From an uncultured cyanobacterium (GTDB taxonomy: Bacteria > Cyanobacteriota > Cyanobacteriia > Cyanobacteriales > CAWCAG01), in assembly GCA_963803805.1 (NCBI GenBank), contig CAWDOD010000002.1, forward strand, positions 192,001 to 256,000: a stretch of DNA of 64,000 nucleotides. The letters run 5' to 3'. Below, piece by piece: positions 1,000 to 16,723 of the stretch; position 1 is the stretch's first letter, and the number at the start of each line of letters is the position of its first letter. The translations under genes were made by a program, and so were the position numbers. The notes beneath the pieces are model-generated. The model did no database searches, was not told the DNA's origin, and saw only the letters and a list, made by a program, of their open reading frames with translations.

Positions 1000-1209
1000 A
1001 GCTTAAAAATTCTACTCCCTCTTTAAGTACAGGTTCCAATCCTGGCAGAAGACTTTCCTGATGCTCTGACAGATTTTAAGCTTGACCTGATACTTTTATA
1101 CTAACTTCTTTCGCTTCTATCAAAGACAGTTTGAATACATTCCTCAACATACGGATTCGTGCAGCAAAATCAAGTCCATCTACAGATGCAATACGATAAA
1201 ATTTTTTTT
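1000..1209 (-). pseudogene. Remnant of a small helical (possibly immunity-like) gene, 5' end lost at the ISL3 end
   Basis: Manual translation FYRIASVDGLDFAARIRMLRNVFKLSLIEAKEVSIKVSGQA*NLSEHQESLLPGLEPVLKE; one in-frame stop; begins at the IS boundary. Confidence 0.4.
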
Positions 1210-2335
1210 GGTTCTACCGAACTTAAGATGTAAGATTAGCAATTGAAATGCCAAGTTAGAAAGATTCTGTGGCAAAAGTTGTCGAAGTTTCTAAACCCAT
1301 AAGCTCTCCTTTTAATCAACTTCAACTTGTTATTAATTCCTTCTACTACTCCTTGGGTTGTACCCCTATCAAAGTAGGCGATAATCTCTCCTATCCAACG
1401 CCTTATTGTCCCACAGCTTTTCGGGAAATACGAGTAAGCTTGAGCGCACCAATTGGCTATTGCCAATAATCCTTCACTCCAATTCTGGCTCTGTTCAAAT
1501 ATATTTCTAAATTCCTCTTTTAATCTGTGCATTCTTCCTCTATTTGGGATAATACCTCTTCTCCCCAGGCTTCCAGATATTGTGTTACTTCTTCTTGTGT
1601 TCGTTTTTCTACTATTCCTACTATGGTTCTTTTGTCTAAGTCTACTAAGACTACATAATAATTACCTTGCCCTTTGACTACTGCTATTTCATCAATACCT
1701 AATCTCTTTAAGTTCTGCGGCTTTCTTGAGGCTAATTCTGCTCCCATATCTTTGAGCATTGTTTCTATTTCTTGTTCGCTCAATCCGTTTCTTTGAGCAG
1801 TGTTTTTTAGGTCACTATTTAATACTTCTGCTACCACTTTTTTTTGAAATCTCTTTGTGTATGTCCTTTTTTTGGAGACATAATCTAGTTCTTCGTTGAA
1901 CTTCTTACCACATCTAGAGCATCTCATTTGGCGACGATTTATCTTGAGATATACTTGTTGAGTTCCCCAAGGTAAATCTCTTATGGTTAGCTGATTGTTT
2001 TGATGGAGTTTTTCTGTGGTTGCACCACAATTAGTGCAGGTAGCTTGTTTTTCTATTTTCTCTATGTGTAATACTATGCCTATGCCCTCTATGCACTGAT
2101 AATTATTTACCCTAACTCCTTCTAATTGAAGCAAGGAAGTCATGAGGTTTAGTTGAGGATTCGATGGCATTTGTATAAACTAAGTCTAAATACTGGTTTT
2201 ATTCTCATCTTTATTTAATCTTTGAATTCACCACAAAGCAACTCAGGCAGACTGTATAGCAACAAAACTATATATTTTGTATTTCAGTAGTTATCTGCTT
2301 ATCTTTCGTTTTTGCATTGCAAGTTCGGTAGAACC
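1210..2335 (-). mobile_element. ISL3-family element with internal deletion
   Basis: Perfect 15-bp terminal inverted repeats GGTTCTACCGAACTT (1210-1224, 2321-2335); no matching target duplication. Confidence 0.9.
1236..2170 (-). pseudogene. ISL3 transposase, split and internally deleted
   Basis: N-terminal part (CxxC zinc finger, LGIDEIA) 1520-2170 and C-terminal part ([20 protein letters not shown]) 1236-1532 in different frames; the middle of the DDE domain is missing. Confidence 0.85.
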
Positions 2336-2336
2336 A

Positions 2337-2426
2337 AATATCACTAATATCAAATTCAAAAGGCTTTAATTCATAAATAAACTGATAAGATAACTTGCGG
2401 TTGTGATAAGGCATATTTTTCACCAA
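2337..2426 (-). pseudogene. WD40 gene copy 4, truncated by ISL3 after ~30 codons
   Basis: VKNMPYHNRKLSYQFIYELKPFEFDISDI matches the start of the WD40 gene at 3145-4074, then ends at the IS end. Confidence 0.9.
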
Positions 2427-2435
2427 TACTAATAA

Positions 2436-3128
2436 TTAACCAAATTCTGGCAGTTCAATAATATCTCTTGGTTTTTGGGCTAAGTTTTGCTGTTCTGGGG
2501 TTTGACTTGTTTCTGGCATTGGCTCATATCGGAGCCAAGTATCTAAGTCTGAAGGAGAAGTATTGTATTGTTCCGGTCTAACGTTACGAAGTCTGCTGTT
2601 AATGTTGACATTAAAATTCACAAATTCTTGCCGTAGTTCGTTTATGCTATTAACATTGAATCCATTTTGTTTGGCGAATTGCTCAGCTTCACTAGCTTTC
2701 TGCGCCTCATCCATTTCAAAGTATTTACCTTCTTCTTTTTTGATGAGAATTAGCTCATCGAATACCTTTTTCATTTTGTCAATTTCTTCTTGTATATCTG
2801 AAAATGCTGAGTTATATAAATTGAGATGCTCTTCTTTAAGTTTTCCTAATGCAAAATTAACCCTATCCATATATTTAGAACTTTTCCACAGGGCTTTACC
2901 CAAGGTTTTGCCTTCTGTTGCTTGTTCCATAGCAAAGCCTAACTGTTCATTGATAGATACTAGATATTCGTCAACCCCTAAAGGAACACCTAGTCTAAGC
3001 TGCTGAGTTAGTACAACGTGTTCAGCAGCAGGGCCTGTATGGTAAGCTTCGTTGGAGAAGAAGAGGGCTTTGCTTTGTAGTTCATTTAATTGCAAAGTTA
3101 GCTGGTCTATTTCAGCAGATAACTCCTC
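2436..3128 (-). other. Orphan effector C-terminal cassette C3 (no ATG start)
   Basis: Paralogous to 7380-8075; starts at GAGGAGTTATCTGCTGAA (EELSAE) directly after an in-frame TAA; ends IIELPEFG. Confidence 0.85.
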
Positions 3129-3144
3129 TTAGCACAGGAATATA

Positions 3145-4074
3145 TCAAGACAAACTCACACGCCATACCTTAATATTCTTATCACTGTCGTAACTAGCCA
3201 AAAACCTACCATCTCCACTCCAAGCTACTCCGTAAACCCTGCCAGTATGACCTTCTATGGTTCCCAAGAGTTGAGCATTGCTGACATTCCAGAATTTGAT
3301 TAGTTTGTCTTTACTGCAACTGACCAAAGTTTGGCCATCATCACTAAAAGCTATGGATTTGACATTATCACCATGGGCTTGAATAGTTAGTAATTCTCTA
3401 TAGGTTTGCCAGTCCCAAAATATGATGCGCCCGTAATGAAGTCCCGCAGCACAGGTTTTTCCATCTTTGGTGATGGCAACAGTAGCAACACAGTCAGATA
3501 AATCCTTAATACTATGTCGAGGGCGACTACTAGGAATGTCAGAGAATTCTACATAGTTAATGTCGCTAGCGATAATATGTCCATTGGGGCTAATGTCAAG
3601 ACGATAACCCATAGTATTTGTGCCTGAAGAACGCTCTCCTGTGAGGATATTCCAAGTATCTGTCTGAGCGCTTCCTCCACTGATGAGGGTTACATTATCA
3701 GTACAGAAGGCTACTGATGTGTAGTCATGTTCAAACTCTGTGATGTATTTCAAAAAGCGTAGATGTTCACCTGTTTGTAGGTTCCACACGTGCAGGGAAT
3801 ACTTTTTGCAAGCTCCTGCTAGAAATTGACCATTGGGGCTGATTGCTAGAGAGTTTAGTGCGCCTGAACTAAGCCCAACAGGTCGCTTCTTGAGATTTTT
3901 GATTAGTCGTCCTGTTGAGAGTTCAAAAAGCTTAACGACGATTCCTTCGCTACTAGCTAAAATTTGACTGTTAGGAGTAATGGCAATATCACTAATATCA
4001 AATTCAAAAGGCTTCAATTCATAAATAAACTGGTAAGATAACTTGCGGTTGTGATAAGGCATATTTTTTACCAA
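3145..4074 (-). CDS. WD40 repeat protein W3 (putative immunity/cognate binder)
   Basis: GH...WD/WN-type repeats (AHGDNVKSIAFS..IKFWN, GHTGRVYGVAWS..IKVW). Confidence 0.9.
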   Translation of the reverse strand: MVKNMPYHNRKLSYQFIYELKPFEFDISDIAITPNSQILASSEGIVVKLFELSTGRLIKNLKKRPVGLSSGALNSLAISPNGQFLAGACKKYSLHVWNLQTGEHLRFLKYITEFEHDYTSVAFCTDNVTLISGGSAQTDTWNILTGERSSGTNTMGYRLDISPNGHIIASDINYVEFSDIPSSRPRHSIKDLSDCVATVAITKDGKTCAAGLHYGRIIFWDWQTYRELLTIQAHGDNVKSIAFSDDGQTLVSCSKDKLIKFWNVSNAQLLGTIEGHTGRVYGVAWSGDGRFLASYDSDKNIKVWRVSLS

Positions 4075-4083
4075 TACTAATAA

Positions 4084-4779
4084 TTAACCAAATTCTGGCA
4101 GTTCAATAATATCTCTTGGTTTTTGGGCTAAGTTTTGCTGTTCTGGGGTTTGACTTGTTTCTGGCATCGGCTCATATCGGAGCCAAGTGTCTAAGTCTGA
4201 AGGAAAAGTATTATATTCTTCCGGTCTAACGTTACGAAGTCTGCTGTTAATGTTGACATTAAAATTCACAAATTCTTGCCGTAGTTCGTTTATACTATTG
4301 ACACCAAACCTTTTCTCACTGGCTACTAGCAGGGCTGTATCAGCTTTTTGTTGCTCACTCATACCAAAGTAGTCACCTTTTTCTTTCTTGATGAGAACTA
4401 GCTCATTGAACAGCTTTTTCATTTTTTCAATCTCTGCTCGAACATCTGAATCAAATGCTGAGTTAAACAAGTCTGGATATTTTTCTTTAATTTGTTGCAA
4501 GGCAAAGTTGACTCGCTCCATATATTTAGCACTCTTCCAAAGAGCTTTACCCAAGCCTTTACTTTCTGTTGCTTGTTCCATGGCAAAGCCTAGTTGTTCA
4601 TTGATAGATACTAGATATTCGTCAACCCCTAAAGGAACACCTAGTCTAAGCTGCTGAGTTAGTACAACGTGTTCAGCAGCAGGGCCTGTATGGTATGCTT
4701 CGTTGGAGAAGAAGAGGGCTTTGCTTTGTAGTTCATTTAATTGCAAAGTTAGCTGGTCTATTTCAGCAGATAACTCCTC
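4084..4779 (-). other. Orphan effector C-terminal cassette C2 (no ATG start)
   Basis: Same boundaries and conserved ends as C3 and 7380-8075, with a divergent middle. Confidence 0.85.
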
Positions 4780-4795
4780 TTAGCACAGGAATATA

Positions 4796-5710
4796 TCAAG
4801 ACAAACTCACACGCCATACCTTAATATTCTTATCACTGTCGTAACTAGCCAAAAACTTACCATCCCGACTCCAAGCTACTCCGTAAACCCTGCCACTATG
4901 ACCTTCTATGCTTCCCAAGAGTTGACCATTGCTTACATTCCAGAATTTGATTAGTTTGTCTTTACTGCAACTGACTAAAGTTTGGCCATCATCACTAAAA
5001 GCTATAGATTTGACATTACTTGTATGAGCGTTGATAGTAAGTAGTTCTGCATAAGTTTGCCAGTCCCAGAATATGATGCGTCCATCATGAAGTCCCCCAG
5101 CACAGGTCTTACCGTCTTTAGTTATGGCAACCGTGGCAACACAAGACAACAACTTTTCAATACGATGTGGGGGACGACTACGAGGGATATCAGAGAATTC
5201 TACTCGACCAAGATCACCAACGATGATATGACCATTGGGGCTAAGGGCAAGACTGCGACCTAATGTATTTGTGCCAACAGAACGCTCCCCTGTATGAATA
5301 TTCCAAGTATCTGTCTGAGCACTCCCCCCACTGATGAGAGTTACGTTATCAGCACAAAAGGCTACTGATGTGTAGTCATGTTCAAACTCTGTGATGTACT
5401 GTAAACAATCTAGATGCTTTCTACTCTGTAAATCCCATAAATCTATTGAATACTCTCCACAGGCTTGAGCTAGTATTTGACCATTCGGACTGATGGCTAG
5501 AGCATTACATAAACCTTCACCTTGGTTGTCTATTTCTTCAAGAAATCCCCCTGTGTCTAATCTCCAAAGTTTAACAGTTACACTATCTGTAGTAAAAAGA
5601 GTGCGACTATCTGGACTAATAATTATATCCCTGATACTAAATTCAGAATGTCTCAATTCATAAATATACTGGTAGGATAGCTTACGGTTTTGCTCAGACA
5701 TATTTTTCAC
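4796..5710 (-). CDS. WD40 repeat protein W2
   Basis: WD40 repeats; paralogue of W1/W3 with the most divergent N-terminal blades. Confidence 0.9.
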   Translation of the reverse strand: MKNMSEQNRKLSYQYIYELRHSEFSIRDIIISPDSRTLFTTDSVTVKLWRLDTGGFLEEIDNQGEGLCNALAISPNGQILAQACGEYSIDLWDLQSRKHLDCLQYITEFEHDYTSVAFCADNVTLISGGSAQTDTWNIHTGERSVGTNTLGRSLALSPNGHIIVGDLGRVEFSDIPRSRPPHRIEKLLSCVATVAITKDGKTCAGGLHDGRIIFWDWQTYAELLTINAHTSNVKSIAFSDDGQTLVSCSKDKLIKFWNVSNGQLLGSIEGHSGRVYGVAWSRDGKFLASYDSDKNIKVWRVSLS

Positions 5711-5718
5711 TGTGATAG

Positions 5719-6410
5719 TTAACCAAACTCTGGTAATTCAATAATATTTCTTGGTTTTTGGGCTAAGTTTTTTGACTCTGGGATTTGACTTGTTTCTGGA
5801 ACTGGCTCGTACCCAGGCCAAGTATTTAAGCTTGAAGGATCAGTTTCATATTCCTCTGGTCTAGCATTACGAAGTTGGCTGTTGATTTTTACATTGAAAT
5901 CCATAAATTCTTCCCGTAGTTGTTTTATGCTTTCAACATTAAATTCTTGTTCCTTGGCTACTTGCTTAGCCGCATCACCTTTCTGTTGCTCATCCATCCC
6001 ATAGTATTCACCTTTTTCTTTTTTGATAAGAATTAGCTTATCAAACACCTTTTTCATTTTGTCAATTTCTTCTTGTATATCTGAAAATGCTGAGTTATAT
6101 AAATTGGGATGCTCTTCTTTAATTTTTGCCAAAGCAAAATTAACCCTATCCATATATTTAGAACTTTTCCACAGGGCTTTACCCAAGGTTTTGCCTTCTG
6201 TTGCTTGTTCCATAGCAAAGCCTAACTGTTCATTGATAGATACTAGATATTCGTCAACCCCTAAAGGAACACCTAGTCTAAGCTGCTGAGTTAGTACCAC
6301 GTGTTCAGCCGCAGGTCCTGTATGGTATGCTTCGTTGGAGAAGAAGAGGGCTTGCTTTGTAGTTCATTTAATTGCAAAGTTAGCTGGTCTATTTCAGCAG
6401 ATAACTCCTC
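5719..6410 (-). pseudogene. Orphan effector C-terminal cassette C1, 1-nt deletion near 6352
   Basis: GGGCTTGCT here versus GGGCTTTGCT in the other copies; length 692 nt versus 693/696. Confidence 0.8.
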
Positions 6411-6426
6411 TTAGCACAGGAATCTG

Positions 6427-7383
6427 TCAAGATAGACTAATACGCCATACTTTAATGTTCTTATCACTATCGTAACTAGCCAAAAACCTACCATCTCCAC
6501 TCCAAGCTACTCCGTAAACTCTGCCACTATGGCCCTCTATAGTTCCCAAGAGTTGACCGTTACTGACATTCCAGAATTTGATTAGTTTGTCATCGCCAGC
6601 ACTGACAAGAGTTTTACCGTCATTACTAAAGGCGATAGAACCAGTCACACCTGCGTGAGCATTTACGGTGAGTAGTTCCCTGTAAGTTTGCCAGTTCCAA
6701 AATATTATGCGTCCGTCATAAATTCCTCCAGCACAGGTTTTACCATCTTTAGTGATAGCAACAGTGCCTACACAAGCTGATGAACCTTGAAAGCGGTCGA
6801 TTTTAAGACTATGAGGGGAGCGAGTACGAGGAAGATCAGAGAACTCTACTCGGCTAATATCACTAGCGATAATATGCCCATTGGGGCTAATGGTAAGACG
6901 ATAACCCATCGTGTTTGTACCTGAAGAACGCTCTCCTGTGAGGATATTCCAAGTATCTGTCCTAGTTCTAGCTCCACTGATGAGGGTTAGGTTATCAGCA
7001 CAAAAGGCTACTGATGTGTAGTCATGTTCAAACTCTGTGATGTATTTTAAAAAACGCAGATGCTCACCTGTTAGTAGGTTCCACACGTGAAGAGAATATT
7101 TTTTGCAAGCTCCGGCTAAAAATTGACCATTGGGGCTGATTGCCAAAGAATTTAGTAGACCTGAACTAGCTCCCACAGCTCGCTTCTTAAGAGTTTTTGT
7201 TAGTCGTCCTGTTGAGAGTTCAAAAAGCTTTACAACAATTCCCTCACTACTAGCTAGAATATGCCCATTGGGACTAATGGTAATATCACTAATGTCAAAT
7301 TCAAAAGGCTTCAATTCATAAACACACTGGTAGGATAAATTACTGTTGTGATAAGACATATTTTTCACCATGCTAAAAATCAA
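6427..7383 (-). CDS. WD40 repeat protein W1, immediately downstream of the full-length effector
   Basis: WD40 repeats; start overlaps or abuts the stop of 7380-11408 (true start may be ATG 7371 or 7359). Confidence 0.9.
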   Translation of the reverse strand: MIFSMVKNMSYHNSNLSYQCVYELKPFEFDISDITISPNGHILASSEGIVVKLFELSTGRLTKTLKKRAVGASSGLLNSLAISPNGQFLAGACKKYSLHVWNLLTGEHLRFLKYITEFEHDYTSVAFCADNLTLISGARTRTDTWNILTGERSSGTNTMGYRLTISPNGHIIASDISRVEFSDLPRTRSPHSLKIDRFQGSSACVGTVAITKDGKTCAGGIYDGRIIFWNWQTYRELLTVNAHAGVTGSIAFSNDGKTLVSAGDDKLIKFWNVSNGQLLGTIEGHSGRVYGVAWSGDGRFLASYDSDKNIKVWRISLS

Positions 7384-10300
7384 CCAAACTCTGGTAATTC
7401 AATAATATTTCTCGGTTTTTGGGCTAAGTTTTGCTGTTCTGGAGTTTGACTTGTTTCTGGGATTGGTTCATATCTGAGCCAAGTATCCAACTCAGAAGGA
7501 GAAGTATCATACTGCCCTTGTCTAGCGTTACGAAGTTGGCTATTAATTTTCACATTAAAGTCTACAAACCTTTGTCGTAGTTGTTCTATACTACTAACAC
7601 CAAATCCTTGGTTATTAGCTTCTTGTTCAGCAGCATCGCCTTTCTGTTTCTCACTCATTTCAAAGTATTTACCTTTTTCTTTCTTAATGAGGATTAGCTC
7701 ATCAAATAAATCTTTCATTTTCTTAATCTCTGCTTGAGTATCTGAGTCAAATACTGGGTCATATGAGTCTGAATATTTTTCTTTGATTTTTGCTAAGGCA
7801 TTGTTAACCCTGTCCATATATTTAGAACTCTTCCACAGGGCTTTACCCAAGGTTTTACCTTCTGTTGCTTGCTCCATAGCAAAGCCTAATTGTTCATTGA
7901 TAGAGACTAGGTATTCATCTACCTCTAAAGGAACACGTAACTGAAGTTGTTGTCCCAATACCACGTGTTCAGCAGCAGGGCCTGTATGATATGCTTCGTT
8001 GGAGAAAAAGAGGGCTTTGCTTTGTAGTTCATTTAATTGCAGGGTGAGCTGGTCTATTTCAGCAGATAACTCCTCCGGAACCACATCAGCATCATAATTA
8101 CTTCTGCTATCCCTCAATTCCTCTAACCTTTCTCGTATTTCCTGACCTTCAACAAGATACTTCTCGTAGAGTCGATTGTAAGCTTCTAGCTCCGCATCTT
8201 CATTAACTGCTTTGATTTTTGCTGGATCTGTTTCAGGAGCATTGTTACTATCGCGTACCTGAATTTCCCCCGCCTTTCTGGTTTGGTTTAGTTGAACAAT
8301 AGTCTCGTTTAATTTATCTATAGCCCTACCATAAGTCTCATCAACTTTATCCAAACGCGCTTCTGTTACATCCCTCAAATCTGGATTGACATTTTCTAAC
8401 AATTGGTTTTTATACCGTAACCATTCCTCAGCACTCATATTTCTGCGTTGTTTCAGTAGCGCCATAACTTCTTGGTCTGCAAGAATTTGCCTTTGAGCTT
8501 CTGGGCTAACCCTGTTTTTGACCCTCTCTACCTCGACTTCTTGGACTAACCGTTTTCTTACTTCCTCTACTTGCTCACCAATTTCCTCAGCATCAAGCTG
8601 GTTAATATCTTCTGGTAGTTTTTGGTCAATTGCCAATTGTGCTTCGCTATTCTCTGATCTCAAATCATTAATTTCTTTAACCTTTGCCCTTATTTTCTCT
8701 TCCCGAACGGGCAGAAGCTCCTCCATTTCTTCGATTTCTTTAGCTAACTCCCTGTAAGGAGGGCTTCCTTCGGGTATTCCTATTTCAGGCATTTCTGCCA
8801 ATTCTAGTCGTTTCTCTGCTAAGTCTGTCGGTAACTTCAAGTACTCTTCCAACTTCCGTAAAGCTATCACTTCCTTAAGCCGATTACCCATAGCGCTACT
8901 GGGCATATGACCTGTGGTATAAACATTGGTATCAAAGACTGTACCAGACTCCTTACCAAACTCATTGCGGAACTGCCGATTAAATTCAATTACAGCTTCA
9001 ACCTCCACACTCTTAGCTCCAGAGAAAGTTACATCATAGTCAGATGTTGGTTGTTCACTACCCGCAGCAACAGGATCAAATTCTTGGGCAGAAGGTCTGT
9101 TTCTAGCGTTGATAAGACTTACTGCTTGTCCATACATTCTGTCAAAAGTTTTCTTACGGAATCTGGTTAACTGCAACATCAATTTTTCGTTGCGGCCTTC
9201 GGTGTATACCTGTTTTAGAATTGTTTTCCAATCATTGTCAAAGTGATCCATATAGGCTCTTAACTCAACATCAGAGAGCCTTTCCCTGTTTGTAGTAACG
9301 TCTATTCTGTCCCTAAAAAACCCTCGGTCGTTGTCTTTTACGGCTGTGATTAGACGACCTAACGTTTCCTCATTGCGTAAATTGTTAAGTTCAGTTGGTG
9401 TTAGTTCCAGAACTCCATTAATTTCCACAAATTTGCTGTCACTACCAACTTCAAAAGTCTCATCAGGATACTCTTGGCTAAGCCTGGTGATAGTTTGATT
9501 GTCTACTAAGTTTTCTTGGTTAACTGTTGATGCTTCTGAGCCTGGTTGTTGACCTGTTTCAACACCAACTACTGTATCTCCTGTTGCTGATGTGTTTTCT
9601 TGGTTAGCCGTAGATGTTCCTGAATCTGGTACTTCCTGTGATTGATCACCAACTTCTGTATCCTCTGTTAAATCTTGGTTGGTTGTTCCTGAGTCTGGTG
9701 TATTTCCTGATTGATCACCGACTCCTGTATTTCCCTCTATTTCTGGTGTGTTTCCTTGGTTGTCTGTTACTGTTTCTGAGCTTAGTTGTTGATCTGTTTC
9801 AACAACTCCTGCATCCCCTGTTTGTGAGTTTAAATCTCCTTGGTTAGCCGTTGAATCTTGGTTAGCTGTTCCTGAGCCTGGTTGTGCATCTGTTTCAACA
9901 CTAACTCCTGTATTTGCCTCTGTTCCTGGTGTGTTTCCTTGATTGCCTGTTACTGTTCCTGAGCTTGATGAATTAGGGTTAGGGCCTCCGTTCAGTTCTC
10001 TTCTTGCTCCAGCAGCACCCAATGCTAAAAAGCCACCCGTAACCGCCAAACTAGATAGTATTCTCAATATCTGTCCAAATTTTTCATTCCTAGATGACTC
10101 AGAATCAAGAATCTTCTCAATCTGATTACCTGCTTCCACTGTAATTATTACAGTAGCCCCTGCATCAAGAGCCACTGGAGTAATAGTCAGAAACTTCTCG
10201 ATATTTCTAATCCGGAAGTTATCACCTTGGCTTATTGCTCGTATCGCCAAAAGACCATCTAATAAACCGGAAACAATTCCCAAAACATCGATAGTAATGT

Positions 10301-11408
10301 TGGCAGTACTTGGTTCTGTCTTACCTAGTTCATTGGCAATACTTAGACCACTAGCTGCTATATCTGCTGCTGTTGCCAACCCAAATAGACGGGGAGCATA
10401 TCTCTGAGTTGCTGGATTCAACGTAGCTACGATACCTAATACAGCTAGGGTCAAGGCTGCCCAACTCAACTCGCCAGATAATAAACCTAATACAGAGCTG
10501 CCATTGGTTTGCATTGTTCCATGGGCTTCCTCTAATTTCAGTGCGTTTGCCTCGTTCTCTTCAATTGCCCATTGAATCAAGCAAGGAGGATATTCGTTAT
10601 TGAACATGAAATTATAGATGGCAGCTTGTGCATCTTCGCCACCATATTCCATTTTGGAAGCACCTGGAGTTAAGTCTAATAACTTAAAGCGTCCAGAATT
10701 ATCGCTATTCCGACCTATGTAAAGTGAAAGAGGAGTTTTCTTCGTTTCCCCTGTTTCTTCCTCTTGTTCACCAAAGTGAATAGCCTTGATTGGAATGTCT
10801 TCGCCTTCTTTAATTTTCCCGATATTACTGTCAACTTGCTCTATGTGGTTTTGCCACTGTTCAAGGCGTTCACCTTCTTCTTTGTTGAGAACAGCCTGGC
10901 GGTACTGGGTTACGCCAATTAATTCACCGTCGCTATTGTATTCTTCACAAACAATGTGATAAACGTTTTTTTCGGCAATAATCCACCGTGCTTCTTCTCT
11001 TTCACTTTTGAGGTCATAAGCTTCTTTGCCTTCAATTTCTATTTGTTGAAAATCATGGAAGATGGCAACATTAACTGGTGTTTCTGGGAGGACATACCAA
11101 CGTCTGCTCTGAGCATTTTGGTTAGATGTTAGTTTGTAGGTATGATACTCATGGTTAGGAGCAGGTTTAATAACTGCTGGATTAGGGCCACTATTGGTGA
11201 TGTATGTTTCACCAGCTTTTTGCTCTTTAACTCCGTATTTCCCTAGCTCAAGATTTTTCAGTTCTAAGTTGGTTCGGAATGTGATATAGTCTTTTTCTTC
11301 TAGTTCCTCTAAAGCATTACCTGGATTGGGACAGTGTTTTTTCTTCTCTTCTTCAGGGCGTTCTACCAAGGAATGCTCACGCTCTGGCTCTGGCTTTTGC
11401 CCTCTCAA
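7380..11408 (-). CDS. Large putative toxin/effector (hydrophobic helices, low-complexity linker, nucleotidyltransferase-like C-terminal domain); lacks an ATG start
   Basis: 1342-aa ORF; hydrophobic segments LSWAALTLAVLGIVATL and LAVTGGFLALGAAGA; motif GSEQPTSDYDV..FDTNVY; lies in a toxin-immunity context. Confidence 0.65.
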   Translation of the reverse strand: MRGQKPEPEREHSLVERPEEEKKKHCPNPGNALEELEEKDYITFRTNLELKNLELGKYGVKEQKAGETYITNSGPNPAVIKPAPNHEYHTYKLTSNQNAQSRRWYVLPETPVNVAIFHDFQQIEIEGKEAYDLKSEREEARWIIAEKNVYHIVCEEYNSDGELIGVTQYRQAVLNKEEGERLEQWQNHIEQVDSNIGKIKEGEDIPIKAIHFGEQEEETGETKKTPLSLYIGRNSDNSGRFKLLDLTPGASKMEYGGEDAQAAIYNFMFNNEYPPCLIQWAIEENEANALKLEEAHGTMQTNGSSVLGLLSGELSWAALTLAVLGIVATLNPATQRYAPRLFGLATAADIAASGLSIANELGKTEPSTANITIDVLGIVSGLLDGLLAIRAISQGDNFRIRNIEKFLTITPVALDAGATVIITVEAGNQIEKILDSESSRNEKFGQILRILSSLAVTGGFLALGAAGARRELNGGPNPNSSSSGTVTGNQGNTPGTEANTGVSVETDAQPGSGTANQDSTANQGDLNSQTGDAGVVETDQQLSSETVTDNQGNTPEIEGNTGVGDQSGNTPDSGTTNQDLTEDTEVGDQSQEVPDSGTSTANQENTSATGDTVVGVETGQQPGSEASTVNQENLVDNQTITRLSQEYPDETFEVGSDSKFVEINGVLELTPTELNNLRNEETLGRLITAVKDNDRGFFRDRIDVTTNRERLSDVELRAYMDHFDNDWKTILKQVYTEGRNEKLMLQLTRFRKKTFDRMYGQAVSLINARNRPSAQEFDPVAAGSEQPTSDYDVTFSGAKSVEVEAVIEFNRQFRNEFGKESGTVFDTNVYTTGHMPSSAMGNRLKEVIALRKLEEYLKLPTDLAEKRLELAEMPEIGIPEGSPPYRELAKEIEEMEELLPVREEKIRAKVKEINDLRSENSEAQLAIDQKLPEDINQLDAEEIGEQVEEVRKRLVQEVEVERVKNRVSPEAQRQILADQEVMALLKQRRNMSAEEWLRYKNQLLENVNPDLRDVTEARLDKVDETYGRAIDKLNETIVQLNQTRKAGEIQVRDSNNAPETDPAKIKAVNEDAELEAYNRLYEKYLVEGQEIRERLEELRDSRSNYDADVVPEELSAEIDQLTLQLNELQSKALFFSNEAYHTGPAAEHVVLGQQLQLRVPLEVDEYLVSINEQLGFAMEQATEGKTLGKALWKSSKYMDRVNNALAKIKEKYSDSYDPVFDSDTQAEIKKMKDLFDELILIKKEKGKYFEMSEKQKGDAAEQEANNQGFGVSSIEQLRQRFVDFNVKINSQLRNARQGQYDTSPSELDTWLRYEPIPETSQTPEQQNLAQKPRNIIELPEFG
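9510..9965 (-). repeat. Intragenic degenerate peptide repeats (T/N/Q/G/S-rich linker)
   Basis: TVTGNQGNTPGTEANTGV / TVTDNQGNTPEIEGNTGV; VETDAQPGS / VETDQQLSS / VETGQQPGS; GDQS..PDSGT twice. Confidence 0.8.
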
Positions 11409-11461
11409 TCTTTGAGCGAGAACATTTGACTCAGATTCAATGCAATCAATTGGCTTAGTAA

Positions 11462-11899
11462 TTAATTAGCAAATTCGTTTTGGAATTTTGAAAGAGAATT
11501 GTATAAATCCTTCTTAACTGAATCATCAGACGAAAAATTACAGACATAAACGTTGTAGATTCTTTCAACTTCTTTTAAAATCGCCTTAGTTAGTTCTTGT
11601 TGACTAGACTTATTAATGATTTTCTGCGAATTTGTCATGAATGAAAAGTTATTATCTTTGTCTTTAAATAACCAAGGCTCAAACCCACTATCAATCCCCA
11701 ACGGCAATTGTGCTTGAGTTTGATTAGTTGTGATAAATTTCTCAATGCAATATAAAAGTTGACAGAGTGAGACAAATATCATGACCGAGCTTTTTGTAGA
11801 CAAGCTACCATACTCACCACTAAAAGTTATATGACCCTGAGAGTAACCATCTATTGGCTCCTGATCATCTTGTAATACTTTGATTTTTACTGATAGCAC
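11462..11899 (-). CDS. Putative immunity protein for the DUF4157 toxin
   Basis: 145-aa ORF whose GTG start directly abuts the TAA (11900-11902) of the reconstructed toxin. Confidence 0.7.
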   Translation of the reverse strand: MLSVKIKVLQDDQEPIDGYSQGHITFSGEYGSLSTKSSVMIFVSLCQLLYCIEKFITTNQTQAQLPLGIDSGFEPWLFKDKDNNFSFMTNSQKIINKSSQQELTKAILKEVERIYNVYVCNFSSDDSVKKDLYNSLSKFQNEFAN

Positions 11900-12124
11900 T
11901 TATTCACTCCTTACAGGGAAAGCTGTAACTACTCTTCCATTGTTTCCAGTGTCTATTACTACTCTTATTCTGTCACGACGACCATTGACTTTAATTCTCT
12001 TTTCAAATATTTGAAGCGTTTGTTGTGGGTTAGATATCCTCGTACCTTTCTTCACAACTACTTGAATCGCCTCTTCTATCTGAGCGCGAGTTGTACCTGG
12101 AGGAAAAAAATCGGTTGTTGAACC
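11900..12124 (-). pseudogene. Severed 3' end of the DUF4157 toxin gene (nuclease-like tip)
   Basis: Reads TTDFFPPGTTRAQIEEAIQVVVKKG...IRVIVDTGNNGRVVTAFPVRSE* in frame with 13137-15704 once the IS and one target copy are removed. Confidence 0.9.
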
Positions 12125-13136
12125 ACGTGAGTTCGATGAAGTTAAAAAACAGCAGAAGGAAGTTCAGCTAGGCCTTTGGGGTCAAGGTCAAGGGAAGGCT
12201 TTTTGGGCAAGAAAGTATAAGCGATTAGACCAGCTAAGAGATTAACCAAAAAATTCCAAACGCTACGGTGTCTTGAATGCTGAATCTGACAGATATTCTT
12301 GAGCTGGTCATTAACAGTCTCAATCAGAGAACGCTTACGTAGGAGAATCTTATCCTGAAGACGCATTAACTTCGGCTTCATATTTTTCTTGCGGTGTGTA
12401 ATCAGTTGTAGTCTTTGTTCATAGAGTTTCTCAAACAAATCCTGAGAAATATAACCTCGGTCGCCAAATAACTTACCAATCAAGCCATCAGCCATATCTG
12501 GCACAGGGTTACGGTCATCAGTATTACCCTCTGTAAGTTTGAAAGCAAGCAGCTCACCTTTGTCATTAATAATTAGATGTAGCTTGAAGCCATAATGCCA
12601 TCCCATAGCATTTTTGCCCCAACCTACCAAACCTTCAAAAACACGGTGGCTTTTGGAGCGATTCGGGTGGCAGACCTCAATGGGGGTAGAATCAATAAAG
12701 CTGATGCCGGTAATTTCTCCTCGAAGAGTATGTAGAAAACAGCAAAGAAGCATTAAGCTCCACGGCATTAGCTCTACGAATCGAGTGTAACTGACCAAGT
12801 TGGGAAAAGCTTTCTTCCAGTAAGGCAAGACTTGTAGAGTGTAAAATTCTTTAAAAGTGCGAAATCCCGAACCATGAAAGGCAATGACAATGGTCATCAC
12901 TTCGCTTAGGCTTAGGCGGGAGCGACATAGACGCTCTCCACAAGTTGCTGTTAACATTGGCTGTTGTTGCCAATGCCTCTCAAACCTTTGATAAAAGTCA
13001 TCTACCTGACAGAATATTTGGGTGATATCGAGACGAGATACAATATTGGACATAGCATCAGATTCTGATTAAGATTCATTTTCAGCATACCTCTGATGCT
13101 TTTCTTTTCTCTCTTTTTCCTCCGTCGAACTCACGT
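12125..13136 (-). mobile_element. IS982-family element
   Basis: Inverted repeats ACGTGAGTTCGA (12125-12136, 13125-13136); 6-bp target duplication TGAACC (12119-12124, 13137-13142). Confidence 0.95.
12142..13053 (-). CDS. IS982-family transposase
   Basis: FIDSTPI, YGFKLHL, GDRGY, RSLIETVNDQLK motifs; intact 303 aa. Confidence 0.9.
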   Translation of the reverse strand: MSNIVSRLDITQIFCQVDDFYQRFERHWQQQPMLTATCGERLCRSRLSLSEVMTIVIAFHGSGFRTFKEFYTLQVLPYWKKAFPNLVSYTRFVELMPWSLMLLCCFLHTLRGEITGISFIDSTPIEVCHPNRSKSHRVFEGLVGWGKNAMGWHYGFKLHLIINDKGELLAFKLTEGNTDDRNPVPDMADGLIGKLFGDRGYISQDLFEKLYEQRLQLITHRKKNMKPKLMRLQDKILLRKRSLIETVNDQLKNICQIQHSRHRSVWNFLVNLLAGLIAYTFLPKKPSLDLDPKGLAELPSAVF

Positions 13137-15704
13137 TGAACCTGAAATAGTTCCCGTAATATGTCTTCCCTCAATGTGAATCCATCCCCATCTGTTAGTT
13201 CCATCTTCTAATCGGGGTGTTCCTCTCCAAGGGGGAGGAGTACTTCCACTAGTTGCTCCTGTTCCTCCACTAATAGTGAAAACACCGCTAACTAAATCTA
13301 CTAGGTCTTCAGCTAGATTGCCCGTCGCTTCAACAACAACACTTCCTCCATGCACAGAAATTGCTGCGCCACCAGCAATAGCAGGAGCGCCGGCGATACA
13401 ACCTATTCCAGTTATACACAAAGAGCCACCGCCTGTAATTGCACCGCCCCCGGCAATTATCTCCAAAATACCTGTAACAGTAGCACCCAAATCTCCGGCT
13501 GTTCTTCCTGCTTCAAACGGCCCGCTTTTCGGAAGTGATTCCTCTAATACTTCTAAGTCTTCGCTAACTGTAGAAGTTCCCAAAGAAACTACTTCTAGTA
13601 CCCATCGTCCTGATTCTCCATTATTACGCAACCATTGATAGAAAGCTCCTGCAACAAACAAGGCAGGGCCGCGACTGATATTCTTCATTCGAGAAAGTAG
13701 GTCTTCAACACCACTACGCTCTTGTGGAGTTAGAACACTCACTGCATTTAAAGTTTCTTGAACTTGCGGGTTTAGCTGTCCTATTTGACCTTTGATATTC
13801 GCATCTTGGAGCCGATTAGTAATCTCAGGGTAATAACTTACCATTACTGAGTTCCGTAAGGCTCGATAAAACTTTTGCTCAGCTTCAGTTGCAGGATTCC
13901 TGTGATTGGTTACAGCCTCAAAGATATTTAAAGCACGCTCACGAATGTTTGCTTGTGTACCTTTGTTGGGATCACGATCATTTGCTGGAAGATTCTCAAA
14001 ATACTCCTGTAGAATTGGCTGTTGCTCAGGAGTTCCCCCTACCGCTTGTTGAGCATTACTGTCCCAATAAACTAAGACAGCACGACGAATAGAATCTCTG
14101 TCGATAGGCATCCCTTGGGTATGTTGGAACCTCGCAGCAATCTCGTTAACTTTGTTTTCTATGTTACGGATTTTCTCATTGCCTCTTTCGCTTTGGGCAA
14201 TGTCAGTTATGATTCCTGTGAAAAGATCACGGTAGGTAATGTCTTGCTCCAGGTTTAAAGCTACTGGTTGCTCTGAAGGAACAATTGTTTGGTTTAGTGC
14301 ATTTACATCATTGCGGCTATTTCGCCTACGCCTAATCCTTTCTTGAAGTTGAGCCTTACTAACAAGATGGCGCTCTACCAATGTATAAAGAATAGCTTGA
14401 GACAAATCTCCAGCACCGTTTTGCTGAGTAATTCCTCCATATATTTGACTCATTTGTTCCCACAAGGGTGTATTTTCCCATCTTCCTCCATGCTGTTTAG
14501 CATATTCGTTTAAGACGGCATCGAGTTCAGCAATATATTCTGGATTATTGTTGCTAGTAATTTGATCTGATTGCTCAAAATACTCTCTCTGCTGCTCAAA
14601 GTTTTCGGTTGAATCACCACAAATTCCGTGCATTACCTGAACAGTTCTAGTTCCGTCAAGGTTGAGATTTTCACTTGCCTGTATTAATACTCCTCGAGAA
14701 CCTGGAGTGCATCCTGATCCTAATATGACACCGAGTTGTTCTGCTGCGTAGTTTATGCTGCTTTCTGGAGTCTCTGATCGTCCAGGTGGAACTCTAATAA
14801 CTTGTGAATTGGCTTGAGCAATAAGATTCTGACCGCCAGGGTTAGGATTTTCATCAGGAACTAGTTGAACCTTTGTTCTTGTTGGTTCAGATGACTTTAA
14901 CAATGGCTCAGTCAGTTCATTTTCACGGGCATTCTGGGTTTTCTGTACGGTAGTTTCTTCTTCTTTTTTTTCTTCCTTAGCCTGAACCCCCTTATCCCCA
15001 GCCCCACCCTGCTGGACAACATGAGTAAGTTCATGGGCAATCAACTCCTGTCCACTCTCATTGTCAGGATTATATTCACCCTGCTTAAAAAAGATATCCT
15101 GCCCCGTAGCAAACGCCCGTGAATGCAATGAGCGATTCAACTGATTAGCATTACCATCTGTATGTACCTTTACCCTACTAAAATCCGCACCAAATGCCTC
15201 CTCCATTGGCTCTTTGATACTCTCAGCTAACCCCTGCCCACTACCTCTAGAACCCTGAATAGTCTGCTCTATAGCTGGAGTTACCCCTCCTCCACCAACT
15301 CCACCTCTACGCATCACTGTAGGTTTCGCTACTGGTTCAACTTTACTTTGTACTGCTTGCTCAGAAACAGGAGAGTTGATCTGTTCTACTACTTTGGCTG
15401 CTGTAGCATCCGCTTCCTGCTCATATTTATCCCCAACTTCCCCTACTGTTAGTTTTGTTTGTACTTCTGTGGTTTCTTCTTGGCTCTTAGCTTCACTTGC
15501 TTGAGATTGCCGTCTCAGAGCCTCTCTGATCAGAAAATTAGGGATTCCCTGAGAAACAGGTGGATTCTTCCAGCGACTCCCTTTTTTCTTTGACTTGCTA
15601 GACCTTTGAATACCCACATCCGGAGGCTCAAAAGAAGGAGACTTACTAGAGGAAGTAGCAGGGGGTGTCCAATGAGAAGATTTTTGGATGCGGGCTTTAC
15701 TCAT
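13131..15704 (-). pseudogene. DUF4157 (eCIS core domain) polymorphic toxin, interrupted by IS982
   Basis: GDKYEQEAD, MEEAFGADFSRVKVHT, RAFATGQDIFF, LIAHELTHVVQQ motifs; Gly-rich hydrophobic pre-toxin segment; tip begins GWIHIEGRH; the current stop is supplied by the IS end. Confidence 0.9.
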
Positions 15705-15728: not shown

Positions 15729-16723
15729 TAGTTATTTTAATTAAGTTTGAGACAATAAGGAGGTAAAATGAAAAGAGTATATTTATAATAGCTCAACATA
15801 ATGCCATACAGTCTAGATTTAAGAAAAAAGGTCATAAAATATATAGAAGATGGTGGAAAGATTAGGGAAGCAGCAAAAGTCTTTAACATTGGAAGAGCGA
15901 CAATATACAGATGGTTAGAGCGTGAGAATCTGGAAGCCACGAAGGTAGAACGCCGTCAAAGAAAACTGGATTGGAAAGCATTAGAACAAGATGTCAAAGA
16001 AAATCCAGATGCTAAACTATCGCAAAGAGCCAAGAAATTTGGGGTAAATCCAAGTGCGATCTTCTATGCTCTCAAAAAAATGAAGATAACTAGGAAAAAA
16101 AAAGAACTTCGTTATCGAGAAAGAAACAGACTTGAAAGAATTAAGTATTTAAGAGCATTAAGAGAATTAATAAAAATCTACGGAAGTGAAAGCCTAGTGT
16201 TTATTGACGAGTCAGGATTTGAGGAGATGCAGTCGGTGCATTATGGATGGTCAAAAAGCGGTGTGACCCCGCGTCGGCGTAAGACGCAAGGGAACGCACA
16301 CCAAGAAAGGCAAAAACTGTATGGAGAAAAACAAGGTAAACGAGGTAAAAGAGAGAATCTAGTAGCTGGTAGAAGAAAAAAGTCAAAAAACTTAATAGCC
16401 CCAATGTTGTTTAGAGGAAGTCTGAATGCAGAAGGATTTGAAGGATGGTTAAGGAAGTATTTATTACCATCATTAACCATAGCGTCGGTACTAATTATGG
16501 ATAATGCACCAATTCATAGGAAAAGAATGATTAGAGAGTTAGTGAAAGAAGCAGGTCATGAAGTATTATTCTTGCCGAAATATTCTCCTGACTTCAATGA
16601 TATTGAGCATGATTTTAGTGCTTTAAAGAGAGGAAGAATGTATGCAGATTCTGGAACATCTGTAGATGAAATTATTCGTAACTATTGTGCAGCTTAATGT
16701 CTCATTGTTATTTAAAATAACTA
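15729..16723 (+). mobile_element. IS630-family element
   Basis: Imperfect ~26-bp inverted repeats TAGTTATTTTAA..TGAGACA flanked by duplicated TA (15727-15728, 16724-16725). Confidence 0.9.
15801..16697 (+). CDS. IS630-family transposase with in-frame palindromic insert
   Basis: MPYSLDLR HTH, FIDESG, MDNAPIH, LPKYSPDFNDIE motifs. Confidence 0.9.
   Translation: MPYSLDLRKKVIKYIEDGGKIREAAKVFNIGRATIYRWLERENLEATKVERRQRKLDWKALEQDVKENPDAKLSQRAKKFGVNPSAIFYALKKMKITRKKKELRYRERNRLERIKYLRALRELIKIYGSESLVFIDESGFEEMQSVHYGWSKSGVTPRRRKTQGNAHQERQKLYGEKQGKRGKRENLVAGRRKKSKNLIAPMLFRGSLNAEGFEGWLRKYLLPSLTIASVLIMDNAPIHRKRMIRELVKEAGHEVLFLPKYSPDFNDIEHDFSALKRGRMYADSGTSVDEIIRNYCAA

Follow-up and report, generated by a model that had tools for sequence, protein, structure and literature searches.

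We analysed a 64,000-nt stretch of DNA from an uncultured cyanobacterium (contig CAWDOD010000002.1; hereafter the window), in which a 1342-amino acid open reading frame (ORF) is followed by tandem copies of its own 3' end, each paired with a gene for a WD40 propeller protein. All parts of this array lie on the minus strand. With moderate confidence we read it as a polymorphic-toxin locus with nested levels, belonging to the DUF4157/eCIS_core class: displacement, with partial decay, has affected units of a toxin tip and a WD40 gene and, on a larger scale, an entire toxin body, and the intact WD40 genes are probably retained immunity genes. This reading starts from the anatomy of the array, the adjacency of toxin and partner gene that is conserved in relatives, the purifying selection on the copies, their mosaicism and the evidence that the long ORF is truncated. 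From these we infer toxicity, immunity and binding, as well as the direction in which recombination ran and its timing.

Anatomy of the tandem array

A unit of ~1.65 kb, comprising the last 231 codons of the 1342-aa ORF and the WD40 gene behind them, occurs four times in tandem. A repeat search of the window recovered 4-copy direct-repeat families with a start-to-start spacing of 1631-1664 nt and 75-100% identity; the tandem repeat is real and lies well above chance expectation. An earlier interpretation of this DNA from its letters alone (the sequence-only reading) had reported that the last ~231 codons of the ORF recur at 6410, 4779 and 3128, and a 27-nt anchor opening the cassette indeed matches exactly on the minus strand at 8075, 6410, 4779 and 3128, with the first 29 nt identical across all four copies. 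It had likewise described the three downstream (orphan) copies as following an in-frame TAA without an ATG, which holds for 3/3; at all three orphan junctions the TAA directly precedes the cassette and is followed by GAGGAG, letter for letter. Two of its statements had to be narrowed. The WD40 gene behind each copy is present, with a Pfam WD40 match on each, but the spacing of ~10 bp applies only if an upstream TTG or GTG is the start; from the stop of the C-terminal (CT) cassette to the ATG common to all WD40 copies the distance is ~20 nt. The near-identical ends are found among the three orphans, which share 95-99% identity over the first 150 nt of the cassette, but not in the copy joined to the long ORF (CT0), whose 5' end is 80-95% identical to theirs at a synonymous divergence (dS) of ~0.6. 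Relative to CT0, this end has therefore been kept as protein and not as DNA. The 3' ends of the tips and the ends of the WD40 genes are 83-99% identical between units.

Followed along the minus strand, the array opens with CT0 (7380..8075, anchor at 8075), the last 231 codons of the long ORF, whose tip is 92% identical to that of P0036, a database protein described below. Behind it lies W0 (6427..7359), encoding a 310-aa WD40 protein with N-terminal blades of a type that we call A (Pfam WD40, E 9.4e-33). The orphan cassette CT1 (5719..6410, anchor at 6410) follows its in-frame TAA and has lost one nucleotide near 6353, 57 nt from its start, which shifts its frame, a defect on which the sequence-only reading had not remarked; the other two orphans that it counted, CT2 and CT3, are intact. 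W1 (4796..5701; 301 aa; E 6.6e-34) has N-terminal blades of a second type, B. CT2 (4084..4779, anchor at 4779) again follows an in-frame TAA, and W2 (3145..4062; 305 aa; E 1.3e-33) combines a type A N-terminal part with a W1-like C-terminal third. After CT3 (2436..3128), a chimera of CT1 and CT2 by sliding identity, the array adds a feature to the earlier description, the stump of a fourth WD40 gene (W3, 2337..2414), whose 26 codons encode a protein sequence identical to that of W2. W3 is cut by an ISL3-family element that closes the array (1207..2338), with 27-nt inverted repeats at 1207-1233 and 2312-2338 and a broken transposase matched over two ORFs by Pfam Zn_ribbon_ISL3, HTH_Tnp_ISL3 and DDE_Tnp_ISL3. 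No WD40 sequence was found beyond this element, where the DNA is unrelated. Between 2200 and 12200, promoter-like sites numbered 16 against 22.8 expected and terminator-like sites 3 against 7.7 expected, none of the 3 on the minus strand.

Selection and mosaicism of the cassettes

Pairwise comparison of the CT cassettes gave ratios of nonsynonymous to synonymous divergence (dN/dS) of 0.17-0.36 at dS 0.26-0.72. The ratio was 0.26-0.46 in the variable middle of the cassette (codons 96-195) and 0.17-0.28 for pairs of W genes. The cassettes are under purifying selection and, given these values, the copies diverged as translated sequence. The highest ratios of nonsynonymous to synonymous polymorphism (pN/pS), ~0.7-0.8, were reached in CT codons 121-165 and in W codons 31-75. 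The variable segments comprise CT codons 91-195 and, in the W genes, codons 16-75 and 151-240. Within the variable region of the tips, the four copies of the window are 61-71% identical to each other, and CT0 shares 89% with P0002, the closest homologue of the long ORF.

CT3 is a chimera of CT1-like 5' and CT2-like 3' sequence. Sliding identity showed its unit to match that of CT1 at 94-100% over unit positions 1-350 and at 75-84% thereafter, and to match that of CT2 at 74-89% first and then at 95-99% over unit positions 500-790. The W genes are mosaic as well: W1 and W2 are 87-97% identical over their last 250 nt and 51-66% over their first 250 nt, and W1 differs from W0 in codons 1-110 by dN 0.375 and dS 1.3. 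Type A of the W N-terminus is shared by W0, W2, W3 and the first WD40 gene (Wa) of L016, one of the related loci considered below; type B is shared by W1, the second WD40 gene (Wb) of L016 and the WD40 gene of L026. Since both types recur outside the window, in L016 and L026, the variants are older than the array. A tail motif, W-P versus W-L/S, that appeared to track the N-terminal type of the WD40 protein was dropped; the third unit of L016 combines a W-S tail with a type-B-like stump.

The partner gene in related loci

We examined 28 related loci, among which L009/L025 and L024/L036 look like duplicates and several contigs are too short to judge. Directly 3' of the toxin gene there is a WD40 gene in 9/28 (L007, L016, L022, L023, L026, L027, L032, L033 and L048), an AAR2-like gene (PF20981 + PF05282) in 5/28 (L017, L018, L019, L021 and L028) and a YbjN-domain gene in 2/28 (L020 and L030). 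The pairing of toxin and WD40 gene persists down to 27-30% toxin identity. The sequence-only reading had recognised start-less C-terminal cassettes, each with a partner gene; this anatomy, which is that of a polymorphic-toxin locus, is supported. The WD40 gene is multiplied in some relatives, to ~7 copies in L023 and to at least two in L016 and L027. In the genome of the window, W0-like genes occur in the array only; the next best matches are partial, share 37-47% identity and lie within large WD40 proteins. W0, W1 and W2 carry WD40 repeats across the protein together with propeller-family matches (Pfam, best 25 of the 39-45 matches to each), and no signal peptide was seen by eye.

AAR2 is a eukaryotic spliceosome assembly factor. 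Its bacterial counterparts lie at L017:11372-12211, L018:11417-12241, L019:11414-12217 and L028:4049-4891 (Pfam AAR2_1st, E 1e-8 to 3e-18, + AAR2), and L021 holds two in tandem (3247-4146 and 4180-5112). In L048, from the same-genus genome G401, the WD40 gene behind a divergent toxin homologue is immediately followed by a fragment of a calpain-type cysteine protease (8465-9094; Peptidase_C2, E 2e-12).

In the part of PMC3482391 consulted, immunity genes are described both as displaced genes in strings and within toxin-immunity cassettes. The conserved adjacency, the clade-wise swap of the WD40 gene for unrelated families and the arrays follow the patterns described there, and from them we infer that the WD40 protein is the immunity partner of the toxin tip. 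The sequence-only reading knew no standard immunity family of this kind, and in agreement the term WD40 is absent from the main text of this 2012 catalogue (PMC3482391, first 300,000 of 357,715 characters, supplements excluded). No description of WD40 or AAR2 immunity proteins and no paper linking AAR2 and a polymorphic toxin were found in the literature searched (supplements excluded).

The long ORF, its family and its predicted fold

The 1342-aa ORF (body B; 7380..11408, minus strand) starts at a TTG and has no ATG. A region of hydrophobic helix and a toxin module of ~700 aa are parts of it, as is a linker of repetitive G/T/N/Q sequence, and neither Pfam (E <= 0.01) nor NCBIfam assigns a family to any part of it. 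Within the G/T/N/Q-rich, low-complexity linker, imperfect 76-77-nt direct repeats of 62-86% identity occupy 9510-9966. In a contig of run X1, 278 nt of the linker are exchanged for 251 other letters, so that linker length differs between strains.

Large cyanobacterial proteins (23 homologues) end in a counterpart of the last ~700 aa of body B, at 31-54% identity. A full scan of 1.84 billion cluster representatives put the family at 554, 237 and 31 representatives at E <= 1e-3, 1e-10 and 1e-30, respectively. Pfam scans of 12 homologues found eCIS_core in six, PG_binding_1 in two, no other family, and nothing in four; among 25 cluster representatives, eCIS_core was found in five, PG_binding_1 in one, Annexin in one and nothing in 18. 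At the level of the family, the module thus stands behind eCIS_core, PG_binding_1, Annexin or no known domain, and RHS_repeat matched neither the 1342-aa ORF nor any of the 12 homologues. Scanning genome contigs with the single protein returned no relative, and a profile scan then returned 10 loci. Distant matches occurred in five of 401 sampled genomes of the class, besides the window's own genome, and a search of 40 relatives gave a match in one, a same-genus genome.

An AF2 model of the last 702 aa (predicted local distance difference test, pLDDT, 83; predicted template modelling score, pTM, 0.82) consists mainly of helices and includes a small sheet. Disorder is predicted for the final 35 residues (pLDDT ~30), and the conserved tail ends in ELPEFG. 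Invariance in homologues singled out a motif in body B, G783 S784 ... D790 x D792 ... D826 (8931..9062, minus strand), whose residues (G143, S144, D150, D152 and D186 in model numbering) are invariant in 20/20 aligned homologues and in 23/23 of a second alignment and lie on or beside strands 137-142, 151-157 and 187-190 of the model. Nucleotidyltransferases of the Pol-beta type are marked by the pattern hG[GS]...[DE]x[DE]...[DE] on a small mixed sheet, which the GS..DxD..D residues of body B match. With the core of the model, Foldseek placed MntA and DrrA in its top rows (E 0.6-0.7), and ~20 of the best 50 VIA rows were nucleotidyltransferases (Z 4.1-5.5), among them cGAS-like proteins, RelA/SpoT, poly(A) polymerase, terminal uridylyltransferases (TUTases), DncV, OAS, GlnE and DrrA. 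Leads from the ESM Atlas scored 0.82. With the full 702-aa model, Foldseek gave no match at E <= 0.001, and a wide VIA search matched the helical hairpin 433-498 alone (Z <= 8.5). The one match of the family alignment profile to PDB sequences, the TATA-box-binding protein (E 0.017), was set aside as spurious. Since the fold searches agree weakly, the assignment of the module as a Pol-beta-like nucleotidyltransferase is probable and no more.

The cassette starts at residue 472 of the model, and its first helix (472-494) pairs in the model with a helix (431-463) outside it. Many positions among the first 95 cassette residues are invariant in the family, including N497, E498, A499 and Y500. Given the split hairpin and these invariant positions, the cassette is the last third of one conserved module and no separate domain. 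The claim of the sequence-only reading that all tips are variants of one domain stands in this sense, the cassettes being variants of one module.

Truncation of the long ORF and a second toxin

The sequence-only reading had taken the 1342-aa ORF for the full-length gene. Its closest homologue is P0002, whose 90%-identity cluster contains P0036, a 2015-aa protein of a Spirulinaceae metagenome-assembled genome (MAG) named by its source as a DUF4157 protein. Residues 688-2015 of P0036 are 81% identical to the ORF; the homology ends at window position 11411, at the TTG of the ORF, and none was found upstream. The 687 additional N-terminal residues of P0036 comprise eCIS_core/DUF4157 (E 1.9e-30) and two PG_binding_1 repeats. 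By this comparison the 1342-aa ORF is 5'-truncated relative to P0036, and the genome consequently holds no evident complete gene for tip swapping. P0002 itself (1384 aa) has a different first 9 residues and otherwise shares 99.8% identity with P0036 from residue 641 onward, which indicates that a short form with another 5' junction exists elsewhere.

Upstream of body B, at 11462-15704, the window contains what is, from its domain matches, a second polymorphic toxin with a DUF4157 N-terminus and an EndoU-like C-terminus, split by an insertion sequence (IS). Toxin A (13131..15704, minus strand; 857-aa ORF) carries N-terminal DUF4157/eCIS_core at residues 159-235 (E 1.3e-30). Its residues 1-245 are 87% identical (213/245) to the N-terminus of P0036 and the following 100 residues 30% identical, so that a 245-aa DUF4157 N-terminus is common to two different bodies. 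The 3' end of toxin A is cut by the IS (12125..13136), whose inverted repeats of 28 nt lie at 12125-12152 and 13109-13136, whose transposase lies at 12142-13053 (DDE_Tnp_1_3, E 1.3e-72) and which supplies the stop codon of toxin A within its inverted repeat. Beyond the IS, an open frame (11903..12124, minus strand) holds a putative EndoU-like remainder of the C-terminal domain of toxin A (EndoU_bacteria, E 8.2e-4). The match covers profile positions 69-128 of 129, the second half, and falls below the curated cut-off because half of the domain is present. The 145-aa ORF directly after it (11462..11899, minus strand) has no Pfam or NCBIfam family and, judged from its position alone, is probably the immunity gene of toxin A. 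Beside toxin A on the plus strand, a 298-aa ORF (15801-16697) resembles, by eye, an IS630/Tc1-type transposase. At least three mobile elements flank and pierce the locus.

Proposed mechanism

Effectors of this kind have, in relatives, DUF4157 at the N-terminus, followed by a long body and, at the C-terminus, a toxin module of ~700 aa, which probably combines a Pol-beta-like nucleotidyltransferase core with extensive helical structure. The repeated toxin-tip/partner unit joins the last 231 codons (helices and disordered tail) to the WD40 gene, whose product, a cytoplasmic propeller, would serve as the immunity protein and recognise the toxin by its variable last helices or by its tail. New tip+WD40 units would be brought in or shuffled by homologous recombination in the conserved block at the cassette start (..LQSKALFFxNEAYHT..). 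Older units would be pushed downstream, where their start-less tips would decay and their WD40 genes would remain intact, probably still protective against neighbours that carry the matching toxin variants. In the same process on a larger scale, an EndoU-type body and its small immunity gene would have taken over behind the shared DUF4157 N-terminus and displaced the nucleotidyltransferase-like body downstream minus its first 687 residues, which would make the 1342-aa ORF itself a displaced cassette. Such a replacement of the body is the simplest reading of the comparison of toxin A, P0036 and body B.

Several observations weigh against this mechanism. The sequence-only reading had proposed a site-wise dN/dS check, and no 30-codon window of CT or W showed pN/pS > 1 with more than 5 changes, which gives no support to diversifying selection. 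The N-terminal blades of W0 and W2 are nearly the same (dN 0.07), yet CT0 and CT2 differ at 39% of the variable-region residues; the complete CT/W pairs (n=3) are too few to judge co-variation. The identical orphan junctions are less easily explained by three independent displacements than by unequal crossing-over that multiplied a single unit; they suggest that one orphan unit was amplified in this way and that exchange diversified it afterwards. Neither a known trafficking domain (Pfam) nor an ATG nor a clear ribosome-binding site was found for the long ORF. CT remnants were found in one (L016) of the 13 related loci searched with their own tip. The nucleotidyltransferase assignment, finally, is probable and combines a motif known from elsewhere with weak fold scores (Foldseek E >= 0.6, VIA Z <= 5.5) and no Pfam match.

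Alternative explanations

If the array were an active swap library, CT1-3 would fuse by recombination onto a working effector gene together with the matching WD40 gene and give new toxin/immunity specificities, a kin-discrimination code, as the sequence-only reading had proposed. The parts for such exchange are there: the shared homology blocks (the 29 identical nucleotides at the start of all four cassettes, and the conserved 3' ends of tips and W genes) flank the variable part, one crossover between the direct repeats would place a downstream tip on the long ORF, CT3 has already arisen by recombination between CT1-like and CT2-like sequence, and the cassettes are open in two of three cases and under purifying selection. 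The long ORF, however, is missing the N-terminal part with DUF4157 and PG-binding repeats that P0036, its closest long relative, has, and CT1 is frameshifted. Alleles with CT1-3 fused to the main gene, which the earlier reading had suggested looking for, did not appear: no long protein with a CT2-like tip was found in a 5.8-billion-cluster collection, where the best matches were the window's own ORF (78%) and P0002 (75%), and none of the Logan contigs over the array joins the long ORF to CT1-3, weak evidence given that these contigs are short and fragmentary and that no single one was found to span the whole array. We consider an active library unlikely.

The remaining two explanations appear less probable still. 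As an accessory factor (a loading chaperone or adaptor, or an activator), the WD40 protein would have no role in immunity and its tandem copies would be by-products of duplication. WD40 propellers are general scaffolds, the conserved and predictedly disordered toxin tail ending in ELPEFG could serve as a docking peptide, and many DUF4157 toxins have no recognisable immunity genes according to the part of PMC8213781 consulted. Against such a role, a single toxin gene can be followed by 2 to ~7 paralogous W genes, the unrelated AAR2-like and YbjN-like families take the place of WD40 in sister clades, and W genes are kept in L016 where the tips have decayed; arrays, replacement of the partner and retention are immunity-gene patterns in the consulted text of PMC3482391 and are not expected of a loading adaptor, so that we think this improbable. 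Functionless tandem duplication of the 3' end of a gene and its neighbour by unequal crossing-over, followed by decay, would account for the junction being identical at all three unit boundaries and for the CT1 frameshift, the two IS insertions and the truncated W3. Decay, however, would drive dN/dS towards 1 and leave stops, whereas the copies retain low ratios at appreciable dS and three W genes are intact, and the W N-terminal types shared with L016 and L026 are older than the array. Neutral duplication is therefore the explanation to which we give very little credence.

Similar arrays and delivery machinery

L016, from a cyanobacterial MAG (51-63% identity), reads CT, Wa, the last 15 CT codons, Wb, CT remnants of 49 and ~150 codons and a W stump of ~45 codons, and is then cut off; by this order of parts it is a decayed array of the kind seen in the window. 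In a contig of run X2, the 3' end of a W gene is followed by 15 nt, then by the closing codons of a CT and the start of a W gene. Short CT-only ORFs occur in other assemblies, starting just before the invariant QSKALFF block (P0029, P0030, P0052, P0087 and P0129) or deeper in the cassette (P0074 and P0080), and we treat them as leads only.

The genome of the window has the contractile injection machinery expected for DUF4157 toxins. On the same contig, ~36 kb past the window end (G000:C2:292232-294608), a sheath gene (Phage_sheath_1, E 8.7e-12) and three tube genes (Phage_T4_gp19, E 3e-29 to 2e-13) lie in a row. This cluster is linked to the body B toxin by the shared contig only, and by analogy it fits the delivery route proposed for DUF4157 toxins in the consulted text of PMC8213781. 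The genome has 9 eCIS_core matches. Outside the window, G000:C3:198728-201858 and G000:C8:141480-145979 hold three each, ~1.4-2.6 kb apart in open frames of 68-595 aa, and may be other arrays of DUF4157 genes or cassettes.

Significance

The consulted text of PMC8213781 calls the missing immunity genes of DUF4157 toxins an intriguing mystery. These toxins are numerous, and one large unannotated family here has a downstream partner that changes by clade (WD40, AAR2-like or YbjN-like), which makes the toxin/antidote pairs directly testable. We tentatively propose, with some doubt, that an undescribed immunity class is formed by WD40 propellers that stand alone and, in a sister clade, by AAR2-like proteins, and that it serves a large family of nucleotidyltransferase-like toxins delivered by DUF4157/contractile-injection routes, with specificity residing in a swappable sub-domain (the last helices and tail) and not in the whole toxin domain. 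If so, shuffled tip+WD40 units would rewrite the recognition code with toxin chemistry unchanged. Two scaffolds better known from eukaryotes may then have a bacterial role. With cassettes displaced both as a whole body and, nested within that level, as the last third of the toxin module, the locus is also a useful case for how polymorphic toxins diversify their specificity. What is new here is the toxin family and its WD40 (and AAR2-like) partner; the cassette arrangement itself is of a known kind.

Comparison with known systems

Effectors of contact-dependent inhibition (CDI) carry a two-partner secretion (TPS) domain, filamentous haemagglutinin (FHA) repeats and a VENN pre-toxin motif; Rhs/YD-repeat toxins carry RHS/YD repeats and a PxxxxDPxGL boundary. 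Loci of both kinds keep orphan modules, CdiA-CT/CdiI and Rhs-CT/RhsI. The window resembles these in its start-less C-terminal toxin pieces, each with its own partner gene and arrayed after the main gene, in a conserved 5' block of the cassette as a possible recombination handle and in its decayed distal modules. It differs in that the long ORF shows none of the TPS/FHA, VENN, RHS/YD or PAAR features (0 Pfam families, and on P0036 eCIS_core and PG_binding only), in that the cassette, the last third of a ~700-aa module, begins midway through a helical hairpin, in that the tips are all alleles of one family and in the WD40 partner.

Nuclease colicins achieve many specificities with one toxin chemistry through a variable surface and a matching immunity allele. 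Their immunity proteins, unlike those proposed here, are small four-helix proteins encoded on plasmids, and they are not known to stand in tandem orphan arrays or to involve WD40. HET-E type allorecognition receptors, fungal NLR proteins with hypervariable WD40, combine a HET effector, a NACHT NTPase and WD40 repeats in one protein. The likeness to HET-E suggested by the sequence-only reading does not extend to the W proteins, which are free-standing (~305 aa; 301-310 aa for W0-W2) and whose best 25 of 39-45 Pfam matches are all WD40/beta-propeller, with no NACHT or HET domain among them.

Polymorphic toxins as defined by Zhang et al. 2012 have a constant N-terminal part and a variable C-terminal toxin. 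This holds at the level of the family, and the window's 1342-aa ORF has no trafficking domain; three stand-alone, start-less cassettes, with an immunity-type gene next to each, lie behind the main gene, as in such systems. DUF4157 (PVC-metallopeptidase/eCIS_core) toxins have an N-terminal DUF4157, a long linker and a C-terminal toxin (PMC8213781, in the text consulted), and relatives of body B share with these extracellular contractile injection system (eCIS) toxins the DUF4157 N-terminus, a very long linker and a C-terminal toxin, and the genome of the window has a sheath/tube cluster. By contrast, the long ORF of the window has lost the DUF4157 part, Pfam finding no HExxH-bearing N-terminal DUF4157 on it, and no Pfam family covers the toxin module; the body B family also has a conserved downstream partner, which most DUF4157 toxins lack according to the same text. 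Tsi1 of Pseudomonas aeruginosa, a partial beta-propeller, offers an all-beta, propeller-like immunity protein in the consulted text of PMC3391265, but it is a periplasmic three-sheet fragment without WD40 repeats, and its toxin Tse1 is a peptidoglycan amidase delivered by the type VI secretion system. Polyimmunity loci, by definition never interrupted by toxin cassettes in the consulted text of PMC3482391, have same-orientation rows of immunity-type genes such as the ~7 WD40 genes of L023, whereas the window alternates tip and WD40 gene. By analogy, the locus appears to work like the orphan modules of CDI and Rhs systems and is a member of neither family.

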